In this document: positions 35,624-55,826 of the stretch, in pieces
How the letters are laid out: every line of letters starts with the position of its first letter
Position numbering within the stretch: the stretch's first letter is position 1
From: Escherichia coli
GTDB taxonomy: Bacteria > Pseudomonadota > Gammaproteobacteria > Enterobacterales > Enterobacteriaceae
Direction: 5' to 3' (one strand)
Assembly (NCBI RefSeq): GCF_048403405.1
Contig: NZ_CP183129.1
DNA: 64,000 bases
The notes under the pieces: generated by a model
Seen by the model: only the letters and a program-made list of their open reading frames with translations
The model's database searches: none
Told to the model about the DNA's origin: nothing
Position numbers and translations under genes: made by a program

Positions 35624-36486
35624 CGCTGTGTCTCCAGCCAGTTCAGCCACTGGTCCATCCCTTCGCCGCTGGTGGCGGAAATAAGGATGATTTCAATTTC
35701 TGGATTGACTTCGCGGGCGCAGGCGATGCACTTCTCAACGTCAAAGTTGAGATACGGCAGCAGGTCAACTTTGTTGAGCAGCATCAGCGAGGCGGCGGCA
35801 AACATATGGGGATATTTCAGCGGTTTGTCTTCACCTTCGGTAACGGAAAGCACCGCCACTTTGTGTTTTTCACCGAGATCGAAGCTCGCCGGGCATACAA
35901 GGTTGCCAACGTTTTCGATAAACAGAATACCGTTATCGTCCAGTGGCAGGCGCGGCGCGGCGTCGGCAATCATCTGTGCGTCAAGATGGCAGCCTTTACC
36001 GGTGTTCACCTGAATCGCTGGTGTGCCGGTAGCGCGAATGCGTGCGGCATCGTTCACGGTTTGCTGGTCGCCTTCAATAACCGCGCACGGAACGCTGTCT
36101 TTCAGGCGCATTAAGGTTTCCGTCAGCAGGGTGGTTTTACCGGAACCAGGGCTGGAAACCAGGTTGAGCACCAGTTGCTTGCGGGCAGCAAAGCGCGCGC
36201 GGTTGCGTTCAGCCAGACGGTTGTTTTTGTCCAGCACGTCAATTTCAACTTCCAGCATCCGGCGCTGGCTCATGCCCGGCGCGTGAGTGCCCGCTTCGCC
36301 ATGACCGTAATGCAGGTCGCCTTCTTCAGTCTGGCTGGGGGTAAATTCAGGCGTTTTAATGCCGGTGATTTTCATCTTCGGGCGTGCCGCCGGGGCAAAT
36401 GGCGCGCTACGAAACGCGGAATGAGGGTTATGTTCATCACCCTCGATATACAGGTTGCCTTCACCGCAACCGCATGTTGTACACAT
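35614..36486 (-). CDS. hypB: Hydrogenase nickel-incorporation GTPase HypB
   Basis: 290 aa ORF with N-terminal CxxCGC metal site, histidine-rich stretch and GTPase motifs. Confidence 0.95.
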
Positions 36487-36489
36487 CGC

Positions 36490-36840
36490 TCACTCCTGGT
36501 CTATTTCTATCCGCCGAATCTGTAAACCGTCGTCTGCCACAATCTGTAGCATGTCACCATGACACTGTGGACAGCGGCGGACGCGCTGGGTCAGTAGCGT
36601 CACATACTGTTGGCATGTTTCACACCAGCATTCGGCCTCTTGTTCTTCGAGGTGCAGTTTACAACCTTCCGCCACGCTGCCGCGGCAAACCAGATCAAAA
36701 CAAAAGGCAAGAGAGCTGGTTTCGACACAAGAAAATGCGCCAATTTTGAGCCAGACCCCAGTTACGCGTTTTGCGCCGTGTTTTGCGGCCTGCTGTTCGA
36801 TCAATTCCAGTGCCCGTTGGCAGAGGGTTATTTCGTGCAT
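36490..36840 (-). CDS. hypA: Hydrogenase nickel-incorporation protein HypA
   Basis: Track ORF trimmed to ATG at 36840 (MHEITLCQRALE), which has GGAGG upstream; 116 aa. Confidence 0.9.
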   Translation of the reverse strand: MHEITLCQRALELIEQQAAKHGAKRVTGVWLKIGAFSCVETSSLAFCFDLVCRGSVAEGCKLHLEEQEAECWCETCQQYVTLLTQRVRRCPQCHGDMLQIVADDGLQIRRIEIDQE

Positions 36841-36870
36841 ATCGCCTCCCATTAACTATTGCCAGCTACA

Positions 36871-36886
36871 AGCAATAATTGTGCCA
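36871..36886 (-). promoter_or_regulatory. Sigma-54 promoter (-24/-12) for the hyp operon
   Basis: Minus strand reads TGGCACAATTATTGCT, a perfect TGGCAC-N5-TTGC match, about 30 bp upstream of hypA. Confidence 0.55.
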
Positions 36887-36999
36887 GTGTTGATTATCCC
36901 TGCAGTGAATAATGTCGATGATGTCGAAATGACACGTCGACACGGCGACGAAATTCATCTTTAGCTTAAAAATCGCTTTAATAACAATGAATTAAAAGT

Positions 37000-37015
37000 T
37001 GGCACAGAAAATGCT
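37000..37015 (+). promoter_or_regulatory. Sigma-54 promoter (-24/-12) for the hyc operon
   Basis: TGGCACAGAAAATGCT, near-consensus TGGCAC-N5-TTGC, 37 bp upstream of hycA ATG. Confidence 0.5.
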
Positions 37016-37051
37016 TAAAGCTGGCATCTCTGTTAAACGGGTAACCTGACA

Positions 37052-37513
37052 ATGACTATTTGGGAAATAAGCGAGAAAGCCGATTACATCGCACAGCGGC
37101 ATCGTCGCCTACAGGACCAGTGGCACATCTACTGCAATTCGCTGGTTCAGGGGATCACGTTATCGAAAGCGCGCCTGCATCACGCCATGAGCTGCGCGCC
37201 GGACAAAGAACTCTGTTTCGTCCTTTTTGAACATTTTCGTATTTACGTCACCCTGGCGGATGGCTTTAACAGCCACACCATCGAGTATTACGTCGAAACA
37301 AAAGATGGTGAAGACAAACAGCGGATTGCGCAGGCGCAACTGAGCATTGACGGCATGATTGATGGCAAGGTCAACATCCGCGATCGCGAACAGGTTCTGG
37401 AACACTATCTCGAAAAAATCGCTGGCGTTTACGACAGCTTATACACCGCCATTGAAAACAATGTGCCGGTGAATTTAAGCCAACTGGTAAAGGGACAAAG
37501 CCCGGCAGCATGA
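37052..37513 (+). CDS. hycA: Formate hydrogenlyase regulatory protein HycA
   Basis: 153 aa ORF, first gene of the hyc operon. Confidence 0.9.
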   Translation: MTIWEISEKADYIAQRHRRLQDQWHIYCNSLVQGITLSKARLHHAMSCAPDKELCFVLFEHFRIYVTLADGFNSHTIEYYVETKDGEDKQRIAQAQLSIDGMIDGKVNIRDREQVLEHYLEKIAGVYDSLYTAIENNVPVNLSQLVKGQSPAA

Positions 37514-37637
37514 GCTGAGGCTTTGCCCGTTTTGCAGGCGTTACGCCTGTTTGGGGATGGGCGTGTCGATGAGTGTCGAAAATGACATTTCATCGGCATG
37601 TTTTCGTCAAAAATGACAATCACCTGAGGAATGCCTG

Positions 37638-38249
37638 GTGAATCGTTTTGTAATTGCTGACTCCACGCTCTGTATCGGCTGCCACACCTGTGAGGCCGCC
37701 TGTTCAGAGACGCATCGCCAGCACGGCCTGCAATCAATGCCGCGCCTGCGAGTGATGCTCAATGAAAAAGAATCTGCGCCGCAGCTCTGTCACCACTGTG
37801 AAGATGCGCCCTGTGCGGTGGTTTGCCCGGTTAACGCCATCACCCGCGTTGATGGGGCCGTGCAGTTGAATGAAAGTCTGTGCGTAAGCTGCAAACTGTG
37901 CGGCATCGCCTGCCCATTTGGCGCAATTGAATTTTCCGGCAGCCGTCCGCTGGATATTCCGGCAAACGCCAATACCCCGAAAGCGCCACCGGCACCGCCT
38001 GCTCCGGCGCGTGTCAGCACATTGCTTGACTGGGTGCCAGGTATTCGCGCGATCGCCGTCAAATGTGACCTTTGCAGTTTTGATGAACAAGGTCCGGCCT
38101 GCGTGCGGATGTGCCCGACTAAAGCCCTGCATCTGGTGGATAACACCGATATCGCCCGCGTTAGCAAACGTAAGCGTGAGCTGACCTTTAACACGGACTT
38201 TGGCGATCTCACCTTGTTTCAGCAGGCTCAAAGTGGAGAGGCTAAATGA
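37638..38249 (+). CDS. hycB: Formate hydrogenlyase subunit 2 (4Fe-4S ferredoxin-like)
   Basis: 203 aa ORF with multiple CxxCxxCxxxCP motifs; GTG start with GAGGA RBS. Confidence 0.95.
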   Translation: MNRFVIADSTLCIGCHTCEAACSETHRQHGLQSMPRLRVMLNEKESAPQLCHHCEDAPCAVVCPVNAITRVDGAVQLNESLCVSCKLCGIACPFGAIEFSGSRPLDIPANANTPKAPPAPPAPARVSTLLDWVPGIRAIAVKCDLCSFDEQGPACVRMCPTKALHLVDNTDIARVSKRKRELTFNTDFGDLTLFQQAQSGEAK

Positions 38250-40072
38250 GCGCAATTTCCCTGATCAATAGCGGCGTGGCGTGGTTTGTCGCCGCCGCTG
38301 TTCTGGCATTTCTCTTTTCTTTTCAAAAGGCGCTAAGCGGCTGGATAGCCGGAATTGGCGGCGCGGTGGGTAGTCTGTATACGGCAGCCGCGGGCTTCAC
38401 TGTACTGACTGGCGCGGTTGGCGTGAGCGGTGCGCTGTCGCTGGTAAGCTACGATGTGCAAATCTCTCCGCTTAACGCGATTTGGCTGATTACGCTCGGT
38501 CTGTGCGGTCTGTTTGTCAGCCTCTATAACATTGACTGGCATCGCCACGCGCAGGTGAAGTGCAACGGCTTGCAGATCAATATGTTGATGGCTGCCGCCG
38601 TCTGCGCCGTCATTGCCAGCAACCTCGGCATGTTCGTGGTAATGGCCGAAATCATGGCCCTGTGCGCGGTGTTCCTTACCAGCAACAGCAAAGAGGGCAA
38701 AGTGTGGTTTGCGCTGGGGCGTCTTGGCACTCTGCTGCTGGCGATTGCCTGTTGGCTGCTGTGGCAGCGTTACGGCACGCTGGATCTGCGCCTGCTGGAT
38801 ATGCGTATGCAACAGCTGCCGCTCGGTTCCGATATCTGGCTGCTCGGTGTGATTGGTTTTGGCCTGCTGGCCGGGATTATTCCGCTGCACGGCTGGGTGC
38901 CGCAGGCACATGCTAACGCCTCTGCGCCAGCTGCCGCGTTGTTTTCTACGGTAGTCATGAAAATTGGCCTGCTGGGCATTTTAACCCTGTCGCTGCTGGG
39001 CGGTAATGCACCGCTGTGGTGGGGGATCGCGCTGCTGGTGCTCGGCATGATCACCGCGTTCGTCGGCGGTCTGTATGCGCTGATGGAGCACAACATCCAG
39101 CGCCTGCTGGCTTACCACACCCTGGAGAATATCGGCATCATTCTGCTGGGGCTGGGCGCTGGCGTAACGGGTATCGCGCTCGAACAACCGGCGCTGATTG
39201 CCCTTGGTCTGGTCGGTGGTCTGTACCATCTGCTTAACCATAGCCTGTTCAAAAGCGTACTGTTCCTCGGGGCGGGGAGCGTCTGGTTCCGTACCGGGCA
39301 TCGCGATATCGAAAAACTTGGCGGTATTGGCAAGAAAATGCCGGTTATCTCCATCGCCATGTTAGTCGGGCTGATGGCAATGGCTGCGCTGCCGCCGCTG
39401 AACGGGTTTGCCGGGGAATGGGTTATCTATCAATCCTTCTTCAAACTGAGCAATAGTGGCGCGTTTGTTGCCCGTCTGCTGGGGCCGCTGCTCGCTGTGG
39501 GGCTGGCAATTACCGGTGCGCTGGCGGTGATGTGTATGGCGAAAGTCTATGGCGTCACGTTCCTCGGCGCGCCGCGTACCAAAGAAGCCGAAAACGCCAC
39601 CTGTGCGCCGCTCCTGATGAGCGTAAGCGTGGTGGCACTGGCGATTTGCTGCGTCATTGGCGGTGTTGCTGCGCCGTGGCTGCTGCCGATGCTCTCTGCT
39701 GCTGTACCTCTGCCGCTGGAGCCTGCTAACACCACCGTTTCTCAACCCATGATCACGTTGCTGCTGATTGCCTGCCCGCTGCTGCCATTCATCATTATGG
39801 CGATTTGCAAAGGCGATCGTTTGCCGTCGCGTTCCCGCGGCGCGGCCTGGGTGTGCGGCTACGACCATGAAAAATCAATGGTGATTACTGCTCACGGTTT
39901 TGCCATGCCGGTGAAACAGGCGTTTGCGCCGGTGCTGAAACTGCGCAAATGGCTGAATCCGGTGTCGCTGGTACCGGGCTGGCAGTGTGAGGGGAGTGCG
40001 TTGCTGTTCCGCCGGATGGCGCTGGTTGAACTGGCGGTACTGGTGGTGATTATTGTTTCACGAGGAGCCTGA
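38246..40072 (+). CDS. hycC: Formate hydrogenlyase membrane subunit 3
   Basis: 608 aa polytopic membrane ORF (antiporter-like). Confidence 0.95.
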   Translation: MSAISLINSGVAWFVAAAVLAFLFSFQKALSGWIAGIGGAVGSLYTAAAGFTVLTGAVGVSGALSLVSYDVQISPLNAIWLITLGLCGLFVSLYNIDWHRHAQVKCNGLQINMLMAAAVCAVIASNLGMFVVMAEIMALCAVFLTSNSKEGKVWFALGRLGTLLLAIACWLLWQRYGTLDLRLLDMRMQQLPLGSDIWLLGVIGFGLLAGIIPLHGWVPQAHANASAPAAALFSTVVMKIGLLGILTLSLLGGNAPLWWGIALLVLGMITAFVGGLYALMEHNIQRLLAYHTLENIGIILLGLGAGVTGIALEQPALIALGLVGGLYHLLNHSLFKSVLFLGAGSVWFRTGHRDIEKLGGIGKKMPVISIAMLVGLMAMAALPPLNGFAGEWVIYQSFFKLSNSGAFVARLLGPLLAVGLAITGALAVMCMAKVYGVTFLGAPRTKEAENATCAPLLMSVSVVALAICCVIGGVAAPWLLPMLSAAVPLPLEPANTTVSQPMITLLLIACPLLPFIIMAICKGDRLPSRSRGAAWVCGYDHEKSMVITAHGFAMPVKQAFAPVLKLRKWLNPVSLVPGWQCEGSALLFRRMALVELAVLVVIIVSRGA

Positions 40073-45080: not shown

Positions 45081-45392
45081 ATGCACATCATTTCGAAAGC
45101 GCCATTTGAAGAGTGTGCGCGCAAATATCCTAACGACGCTCTGGCTCTACACTCATTGTATCGGGTTATTAAGGAAACGGATTTTTCTACACCAGAAGAA
45201 ATGCGAACGGCGTTTCCTAACCTCGACAATTTTAAATATCGCAACAAATGGTACGTTCTGGATGTCGGCGGGAACAATCTTAGGGTTATTGCCTACATAA
45301 ACTTTGTTAATAAGCGGTTCTTTGTGAAGCACATAACGAATCACGCAGAGTATGACAAACTGACACGTTACTACAGAGAGAACAAAGAATGA
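45081..45392 (+). CDS. HigB-like type II toxin (RelE/ParE superfamily)
   Basis: 103 aa ORF; resembles remembered HigB (FPNLDNFKY...VLDVGGNNLRVIA); AAGGAAG RBS; stop overlaps antitoxin start (ATGA). Confidence 0.8.
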   Translation: MHIISKAPFEECARKYPNDALALHSLYRVIKETDFSTPEEMRTAFPNLDNFKYRNKWYVLDVGGNNLRVIAYINFVNKRFFVKHITNHAEYDKLTRYYRENKE

Positions 45393-45808
45393 CTGCTAAT
45401 GCTGCACGCGCTGTTAAAGCAACAAGAGAACTGGTCAATGCAGTCCCCTTTCTGGGAGGCAGTGACTCAGAAGATGATTATCGTGAAGCACTGGAACTGG
45501 TCGAATATTTGATTGAAGAAGATGACACCAATCCACTTATCGACTTTCTGGCGAGCCGCATTGCAGAATATGAAAACAACAACGAAAAGTTTGCAGAGTT
45601 CGACAAAGCCGTTGCAGCAATGCCGGTTGGCGTGGCGTTACTTCGTACGCTGATTGATCAACATAATTTGACCTATGCGGATTTGAAGAACGAAATCGGC
45701 TCTAAATCTCTGGTCAGTCAGATTTTGTCTGGGCAACGATCCCTGACGATATCCCATATTAAGGCACTTTCAGCCCGATTTGGCGTTAAGCCGGAATGGT
45801 TTCTTTGA
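45389..45808 (+). CDS. HigA-like antitoxin (HTH)
   Basis: 139 aa ORF coupled to the toxin; C-terminal HTH-like segment (IGSKSLVSQILSGQRSLTISHIKALSARFGV). Confidence 0.8.
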   Translation: MTANAARAVKATRELVNAVPFLGGSDSEDDYREALELVEYLIEEDDTNPLIDFLASRIAEYENNNEKFAEFDKAVAAMPVGVALLRTLIDQHNLTYADLKNEIGSKSLVSQILSGQRSLTISHIKALSARFGVKPEWFL

Positions 45809-48777: not shown

Positions 48778-49036
48778 CGGATTTTATCCTGTTATCAGTA
48801 GGGTAGATGTAGTTGTTATCAGTCGACGTGACGGAAAAATGCCGATGCTGAAACGGAATTAGGAAACCGGTTTCACAAAATCATGAATAGTTGTCACTAA
48901 ATAAGCAAGAGAGTTAATTGTTCATTTTTTATATTTGTGAAACCGGTCACCTGAATATTTTTCCCGCCGATTGCGCAAGGACAATCGGCAAACGGTGCAG
49001 TACACTGCGTTGATTGCGTGTAAAGGGATGAAAATG

Positions 49037-50047
49037 ATGACGACGATGCTGGAAGTGGCGAAGCGCGCCGGGGTTTCAAAAGCGACCGTTTCCCGCGTGC
49101 TTTCAGGTAATGGCTACGTCAGCCAGGAGACTAAAGATCGCGTGTTTCAGGCGGTAGAAGAGAGCGGTTACCGCCCAAACTTGCTGGCGCGCAATCTGTC
49201 GGCGAAGAGTACTCAGACGCTGGGGCTGGTCGTGACCAACACGCTTTACCACGGCATTTATTTTAGTGAATTACTCTTTCATGCCGCGCGAATGGCGGAA
49301 GAGAAAGGGCGACAGTTGCTATTGGCAGATGGTAAACACAGCGCCGAAGAAGAGCGCCAGGCGATTCAGTATCTGCTGGATTTGCGCTGCGACGCCATTA
49401 TGATTTACCCGCGTTTTTTAAGCGTGGATGAGATTGATGACATCATTGACGCACACAGTCAGCCGATAATGGTGCTTAATCGCCGCCTGCGCAAAAACAG
49501 CAGCCATAGCGTCTGGTGCGATCATAAACAGACCAGCTTTAACGCCGTGGCAGAGTTGATAAACGCCGGACATCAGGAGATTGCTTTCCTTACCGGCTCG
49601 ATGGATTCTCCCACCAGCATTGAACGTCTTGCCGGGTATAAAGACGCGCTGGCGCAGCATAGTATTGCGCTCAATGAAAAACTTATCGCTAACGGTAAAT
49701 GGACGCCCGCCAGCGGGGCCGAAGGGGTAGAAACGTTGCTCGAACGTGGGGCTAAATTTAGCGCGTTAGTTGCCAGTAACGACGATATGGCGATAGGTGC
49801 GATGAAAGCGTTACACGAGCGCGGCGTAGCGGTGCCAGAGCAGGTGTCAGTTATCGGATTCGATGATATCGCCATTGCCCCCTATATCGTTCCGGCGCTC
49901 TCCAGCGTAAAAATTCCGGTGACTGAGATGATTCAGGAAATTATTGGACGGCTGATTTTTATGCTCGATGGTGGGGATTTCTCACCGCCGAAAACCTTCA
50001 GCGGAAAACTGATCCGCCGCGGCTCCCTCATTGCTCTTTCGCAATAA
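49037..50047 (+). CDS. ascG: LacI-family repressor of the asc operon
   Basis: Track ORF starts at TTG 48971; ATG 49037 gives MTTMLEVAKRAGVSKATVSRVL; 336 aa; divergent from ascF. Confidence 0.85.
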   Translation: MTTMLEVAKRAGVSKATVSRVLSGNGYVSQETKDRVFQAVEESGYRPNLLARNLSAKSTQTLGLVVTNTLYHGIYFSELLFHAARMAEEKGRQLLLADGKHSAEEERQAIQYLLDLRCDAIMIYPRFLSVDEIDDIIDAHSQPIMVLNRRLRKNSSHSVWCDHKQTSFNAVAELINAGHQEIAFLTGSMDSPTSIERLAGYKDALAQHSIALNEKLIANGKWTPASGAEGVETLLERGAKFSALVASNDDMAIGAMKALHERGVAVPEQVSVIGFDDIAIAPYIVPALSSVKIPVTEMIQEIIGRLIFMLDGGDFSPPKTFSGKLIRRGSLIALSQ

Positions 50048-50095: not shown

Positions 50096-50195
50096 CCTGC
50101 ATTACAGAATTTAATTTCTTTAAATAACAGTAAATTAAAAACTGGCATGATTTGTGAATGTATCGGCGCATTAACTGTCATTGCTGGAGAATTTG

Positions 50196-55810: not shown

Positions 55811-55826
55811 TGCAGATTGCGTGCCA
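55811..55826 (-). promoter_or_regulatory. Sigma-54 promoter (-24/-12) of norVW
   Basis: Minus strand reads TGGCACGCAATCTGCA, about 48 bp upstream of the norV start. Confidence 0.6.

Follow-up and report, generated by a model that had tools for sequence, protein, structure and literature searches.

The hypA-hycA locus

We analysed one strand of a 64-kb stretch of DNA (64,000 nucleotides, hereafter the window), in which position 1 is the first letter. The window comes from Escherichia coli: a 501-base query from around the locus matches 5,425 of the 5,426 complete E. coli genomes, with 100% identity in several, and the genes annotated beneath the match in the E. coli genomes with 100% DNA matches are hypA and hycA. 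The 24.5 kb around the locus are collinear with strain 2012C-4221 and share its gene order, with mutS, ygbA, fhlA and hypEDCBA on one strand and hycABCDEFGHI on the opposite strand.

The first gene of hypABCDE-fhlA is hypA (36490-36840, minus strand, ATG at 36840), and the first gene of hycABCDEFGHI is hycA (37052-37513, plus strand, ATG at 37052). In E. coli, hyc is the hydrogenase-3 operon and hyp the hydrogenase-maturation operon, and the product of hycA is an antagonist of FhlA. The spacer between the two ATGs runs from 36841 to 37051, exactly the 211 bp that had been claimed from a first reading of the sequence (the original prediction). A ribosome-binding site for hypA, GGAGG, can be read on the minus strand at 36845-36849, and it is invariant in the 81 loci that we compare below.

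Two -24/-12 elements in the spacer

The original prediction had placed a perfect TGGCAC-N5-TTGCT on the minus strand of the spacer and TGGCAC-N5-ATGCT on the plus strand. Both are present, the first as TGGCACAATTATTGCT at 36871-36886 (minus strand, facing hypA; the hyp element) and the second as TGGCACAGAAAATGCT at 37000-37015 (plus strand, facing hycA; the hyc element), and we identified both by motif and by matrix score. In each of them the GG and the GC are exactly 10 bp apart within TGGCAC-N5-TTGCW, and the hyc element has A, not T, directly before the TGC. Each element sits at the side of the spacer that adjoins its target gene, with 30 nt (hyp) or 36 nt (hyc) between the end of the motif and the ATG, and the upstream faces of the two are turned toward each other with 113 bp between them.

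On either strand of the window, TGGCAC-N5-WTGCW has only two matches, and these are the hyp and hyc elements. Shuffling the window gave a mean of 0.37 matches, with two or more in 5 of 100 shuffles. We also scored the window with a sigma-54 weight matrix of 186 published sigma-54 promoters, copied from PMC7658346. The hyp element scores 19.06 and ranks first in the window, and the hyc element scores 15.59 and ranks third; rank two (16.32) is taken by the known norV promoter, a published sigma-54 site at 55811-55826 on the minus strand (TGGCACGCAATCTGCA). The exact tail probabilities per position are 8.9e-8 for the hyp element and 2.6e-6 for the hyc element, and the numbers of matches expected per strand of the 211-bp spacer are ~2e-5 and ~5e-4, respectively.

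On score alone the hyp element is exceptional. The hyc score alone is not beyond chance for a window this large, a score of that level being expected ~0.3 times per 128 kb, and the hyc element is significant because of its place, its orientation and its conservation. For two correctly oriented matches of these scores in one 211-bp spacer, the joint expectation is ~1e-8.

The two promoters also form a 27-nt imperfect inverted repeat (78%) at 36860-36886 and 37000-37026, which extends beyond the -12 region into the start region, where both read ...TGCTTnnAGCTGGCA. The extension past -12 is without conservation outside Escherichia.

Published binding and expression data

Both elements coincide with sites that have been published for E. 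coli K-12. In the sigma-54 ChIP-seq study of Bonocora et al. (2015), they are OS27 at hycA (TTGGCACAAAAAATGCT, occupancy 91) and OS28 at hypA (CTGGCACAATTATTGCT, occupancy 201, motif score 14.09), OS28 has both the top occupancy and the top motif score among the intergenic peaks, and for both sites the study notes an experimentally confirmed promoter in EcoCyc (PMC4591121). A gSELEX peak of the sigma-54 holoenzyme also lies within the hypA-hycA spacer (PMC8743547). Zhao et al. (2010) placed the motifs at -52 to -35 (hycA) and -46 to -29 (hypA) from the start codons (PMC2831329), and the positions are identical in the window. The K-12 hycA/hypA promoters match ours in locus, genes and start-codon offsets (-52 and -46). 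In the array data of the same study, hycA was 13-fold up on sigma-54 overproduction and 2.3-fold down in an rpoN deletion, and hypA was 2.4-fold up and 1.3-fold down, respectively (PMC2831329).

Bonocora et al. predicted the transcription starts to lie 19 bp from the motif centre, 26 nt (hycA) and 20 nt (hypA) before the genes (PMC4591121). Applied to the window, the 19-bp rule gives predicted starts near 37026 for hyc and near 36860 for hyp, with leaders of ~26 nt to the hycA ATG and ~20 nt to the hypA ATG, equal to those of K-12. These exact start points are predictions that rely on secondary citations.

The divergent pair is orthologous to that of Salmonella Typhimurium LT2 (hycA, STM2853; hypA, STM2854), where the sites TGGCATGGAAAATGCT and TGGCATAAATATTGCT were bound by the sigma-54 holoenzyme in ChIP-chip and a constitutive activator raised the expression of the operons 26-fold and 5.6-fold (PMC3844500). 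The Salmonella elements differ from those of the window in having TGGCAT in both, where the window has TGGCAC, and in their spacer bases. FhlA is named as the activator of the Salmonella hyc and hyp operons (PMC4987338), and fhlA-dependent induction by formate is stated in several papers (PMC4591121, PMC4987338, PMC11291172). The hyp genes are also under FNR regulation (PMC3149613), and sigma-54 is therefore not the sole control of hyp.

The ChIP-seq, gSELEX and rpoN array data and the Salmonella FhlA assignment all agree with the FhlA and sigma-54 dependence that the original prediction claimed for both operons. It had also called the finding confirmatory rather than novel, and this is borne out; both promoters are already known and the finding is an ordinary one. 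Characterisation of the hyp and hyc promoters goes back to 1990, and every E. coli regulatory database contains them. The original mapping of divergent NtrA-dependent promoters at this locus was reportedly that of Lutz et al. in 1990. The value of the locus is as a positive control, in which a validated regulatory element was found from raw sequence at the right coordinates.

Variation within E. coli

The spacer is 211 bp long in both the window and K-12, with four single-base differences between them, none of which falls in the core bases of the elements or in the FhlA boxes. The hyp element is identical in the window and in K-12 OS28. In the hyc element the window has G, not A, at 37007, which is in the non-conserved spacer of the element. 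Around the hyc element, 46 bases of the window recur unchanged in 1,813 of 5,249 E. coli records and with one mismatch in 3,434, including the K-12 derivative J53; around the hyp element, 51 bases recur unchanged in 4,818 of 5,253 records.

Conservation across Enterobacteriaceae

A scan of 100,044 species genomes for HycA yielded 80 loci, which together with the window gave 81 sequences from ~15 genera (Escherichia, Citrobacter, Salmonella, Enterobacter, Klebsiella, Raoultella, Kluyvera, Kosakonia, Lelliottia, Pseudocitrobacter, Pseudescherichia and others). The back-to-back hypA/hycA pair is kept in all 81, with a spacer of 188-223 bp, and in 81/81 the best matrix match on each spacer strand is the orthologous promoter. 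The end of the motif lies 34-37 nt from the ATG for hyc and 28-34 nt for hyp, with a single exception of 42.

The TGGCA and TGC of the elements are unchanged in 81/81 loci, in the hyp and hyc promoters alike. The sixth base of the -24 element is C or T, and each position of the element spacers shows 2-4 different bases. Column by column, the identity of the spacer to the window is 61% overall, and the invariant blocks in this profile are both promoter cores, the hypA ribosome-binding site and the FhlA boxes. This comparison, which is new here, shows strict purifying selection on both elements.

The two promoters differ in the base 5' of the -12 TGC. In the hyp promoter it is T in 81/81 loci (36875 in the window), and in the hyc promoter it is never the consensus T, being A in 30, G in 30 and C in 21 (37011 in the window). 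As a side observation, the non-T base of hyc parallels its lower ChIP-seq occupancy in K-12, 91 for hyc as opposed to 201 for hyp.

The distance from -24 to -24 falls into separate classes of 112-116 bp (59 loci), 102-103 bp (19 loci) and 92 bp (3 loci), with none between; the shorter classes are found in Citrobacter, Kosakonia, one Enterobacter sp. locus and Pseudescherichia. When the distance is split at the FhlA boxes, the interval from the hyp -24 element to the boxes is 33-35 bp in most of the well-aligned loci, and that from the boxes to the hyc promoter is 79-80, 68-70 or 57 bp, in steps of ~11 bp. This two-interval split is reliable for the well-aligned majority only, as anchor-based spacing failed for ~10-15 of the 81 loci, mostly Klebsiella and Raoultella (6-10 anchor mismatches); the total -24 to -24 distance is unaffected by the anchors. 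Steps of ~11 bp are what a requirement for the same face of the helix between the enhancer and the hyc promoter would produce. To our knowledge, there is no comparative description of a strict face-of-the-helix requirement for this locus. The comparative data thus add modest detail to what is known of the promoters, namely the unvarying cores, the non-T base before the hyc TGC and the ~11-bp indel steps.

FhlA boxes and an IHF-like site between the promoters

Between the two promoters, at 36913-36955, we found a cluster of FhlA boxes, TGTCGATGATGTCGAAATGACACGTCGACACGGCGACGAAATTC, which we refer to as the enhancer UAS-1 and which we recognised by FhlA matrix, half-sites and conservation. It extends from ~-71 to ~-113 relative to the predicted hyc start and from ~-53 to ~-95 relative to the predicted hyp start. 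The 14-bp FhlA matrix scores 16.13 at 36913-36926, the second best match in the window, and since the matrix was made from 13 characterised FhlA sites, very probably including these same ones, its scores are not independent evidence. The conservation of the UAS-1 boxes, as seen in the aligned sequences, is independent of the matrix: the TGTCGA and GACA blocks show little or no change in the 81 loci. TTTCGWC half-sites occur in UAS-1 at 36923 and 36947, two of the 19 in the window; a 900-bp region around hycA holds 7 of the 19.

The 16-bp FhlA palindrome CATTTCGTACGAAATG (quoted in PMC4987338) has no match in the hypA-hycA spacer at 5 or fewer mismatches, and at that threshold the sole match in the locus is at 37600-37615, with 5 mismatches, inside the second cluster described below. 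The sites fit a 14-bp TGWC-N6-GWCA form together with TTTCGWC half-sites, and the poor fit to CATTTCGTACGAAATG reflects how the FhlA consensus is written and not the sites themselves.

A predicted IHF-like site, TAACAATGAATTA (36982-36994, plus strand), has one mismatch to WATCAANNNNTTR and begins 18 bp upstream of the -24 element of hyc, in a stretch of ~79% A+T. Allowing one mismatch at most, this stretch has a match in 59 of the 81 loci, most of the listed examples at the 18-bp offset, with the reservation that the consensus is a loose one in A+T-rich DNA. IHF is listed as an activator of the hyc and hyp genes (PMC2636881), and it may act at the hyc promoter through this site. A scan for FNR boxes returned 53 loose matches in the window, and the sole one near the spacer falls in the A+T-rich IHF stretch and is uninformative.

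A second cluster of FhlA boxes between hycA and hycB

A second cluster, UAS-2 (GTGTCGATGAGTGTCGAAAATGACA...TTTTCGTCAAAAATGACA, 37562-37620), beyond the coordinates given in the original prediction, follows the stop codon of hycA and precedes the ribosome-binding site of hycB. Relative to the predicted starts it is ~730 bp upstream for hyp and ~565 bp downstream for hyc. The FhlA matrix scores 17.50 at 37574-37587, out of a maximum possible 17.67, and 12.2 at 37605-37618, the two boxes being 31 bp apart. UAS-2 is a near-repeat of UAS-1, with TGTCGATGAGTGTCGAAAATGACA followed by CGTCAAAAATGACA 31 bp on. The block hardly varies among 77 distinct sequences drawn from many genera, and the remaining hycA-hycB spacer is unalignable. 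The sole match in a scan for terminators is the inverted repeat of the FhlA boxes, and an Rfam scan of 36300-37800 gave no RNA match at E <= 1.

Schlensog et al. (1994) are said to have described FhlA footprints at the hycA-hycB site, which reportedly activates hyp from ~0.7 kb. UAS-2 is probably this known remote enhancer of hyp. Which enhancer would serve which promoter is a matter that sequence alone cannot decide.

A divergent promoter pair of the formate regulon

Based on the evidence above, we are almost certain that the spacer holds the divergent sigma-54 promoter pair of the E. coli formate regulon. In the mechanism that we propose, sigma-54 RNA polymerase would be held in a closed complex at 36871-36886, directed leftward into hypABCDE-fhlA, and in another at 37000-37015, directed rightward into hycABCDEFGHI. 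Opening of both complexes would need the ATPase activator FhlA, switched on by formate. FhlA would occupy the TGTCGA and GACA boxes at 36913-36955 as well as the second cluster at 37562-37620, and would be looped to the polymerase, where ATP hydrolysis would open the complexes. Bending by IHF of the A+T-rich segment (site 36982-36994) may deliver the FhlA bound between the promoters to the hyc promoter. The last gene of the leftward operon is fhlA, and the first of the rightward one is hycA, which encodes the FhlA antagonist, so that one spacer would fire positive and negative feedback loops together.

Alternative readings

The alternative that survives best accepts both promoters as real and has the single shared enhancer at 36913-36955 fire both of them, with the cluster between hycA and hycB acting in some other way, for instance as a roadblock, as a binding site for a different factor or in controlling the translation of hycB. 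UAS-1 is indeed at a workable distance from both predicted starts, its spacing from the hyp -24 element is nearly constant in most well-aligned loci, and the end of UAS-2 is only ~6 nt before the hycB ribosome-binding site. However, UAS-2 nearly copies UAS-1, as TGTCGATGA(G)TGTCGAAA(A)TGACA, with a near-maximum FhlA matrix score, and its conservation is as strict as that of the promoters. The reported FhlA footprint at the hycA-hycB site, serving hyp, also speaks against a single enhancer, and we consider this reading unlikely.

A third sigma-54 promoter could lie within hycA, at TGGCACATCTACTGCA (37121-37136, plus strand), and would give hycB-I transcripts without an intact hycA. With a score of 15.05 this match is the fourth in the window and almost equal to the hyc promoter; it is in the sense orientation, 121 bp downstream of the hyc promoter, with FhlA boxes downstream of it, and intragenic sigma-54 sites are common in E. 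coli. Nevertheless, ~0.5 such matches are expected by chance in the window, and this one is spelled by the conserved codons Trp-His-x-Tyr-Cys (Trp-His-Ile-Tyr-Cys in the window). The GC at -12 is lost in 19 of the 81 loci, where the Cys codon is TGT, and the His codon is replaced by one for Arg or Gln in about half of them. The site is absent from the high-stringency ChIP-seq sites, in which the hyc peak 121 bp away could hide it. We set TGGCACATCTACTGCA aside as a real promoter on conservation grounds, as it is probably a by-product of coding, and such a promoter is very improbable. If TGGCACATCTACTGCA and UAS-2 did make up a third start that responds to formate, in Escherichia and its close relatives, to which we give equally little credence, the resulting hycB-I mRNA without HycA would uncouple enzyme synthesis from negative feedback.

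That both motifs are chance look-alikes in an A+T-rich spacer, with the operons read from sigma-70 promoters, has next to no probability: a match at the hyc level could by itself be fortuitous and there is one sigma-70-like hexamer pair, at 36852-36879 (plus strand), but the two motifs share one short spacer in the correct orientations, they remain invariant across the 81 loci although their spacers have drifted, both are bound by sigma-54 in vivo in K-12 and in Salmonella, and the hexamer pair is unsuitably placed and is the 1 match where 1.5 are expected, so that the scan of 1.3 kb found no sigma-70 promoter above chance.

Related promoters and other features of the window

The divergent sigma-54 pair of hyp and hyc can be compared with other promoters of the FhlA/formate regulon. 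Those of fdhF and hydN-hypF likewise have sigma-54 -24/-12 elements with upstream FhlA boxes of the TTTCGWC type, but they are single promoters. The zraP/zraS spacer of E. coli is similar in arrangement, with one sigma-54 site on each strand at a distance of ~150 bp, and ChIP-seq showed occupancy of both (OS38 and OS39), but there the activator is ZraR and the signal zinc, unlike FhlA and formate for hyp and hyc.

The hydN promoter is itself in the window, as a weak published sigma-54 site at 50143-50158 on the plus strand (TGGCATGATTTGTGAA), and it is much weaker than the hyp and hyc elements, with a score of 11.0 and GA instead of GC at -12. We noted FhlA-matrix matches of 11.8-13.8 at 49429-49451 (minus strand) and 49029-49042 (plus strand), ~0.7-1.1 kb upstream of the hydN sigma-54 element, at scores near the chance level for the window. 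Another published sigma-54 site in the window is intragenic, in hycC at 39457-39472 on the plus strand (TGGCGCGTTTGTTGCC; IS31 of Bonocora et al.).

Between hycI and ascB, at 45081-45808, there is a gene for a HigB-family toxin together with a gene for a helix-turn-helix partner (as annotated in NZ_CP027437). The hycI-ascB gap is 972 bp in the window, whereas in K-12 it is 158 bp and gene-free, and the pair is therefore a strain-variable toxin-antitoxin insertion.
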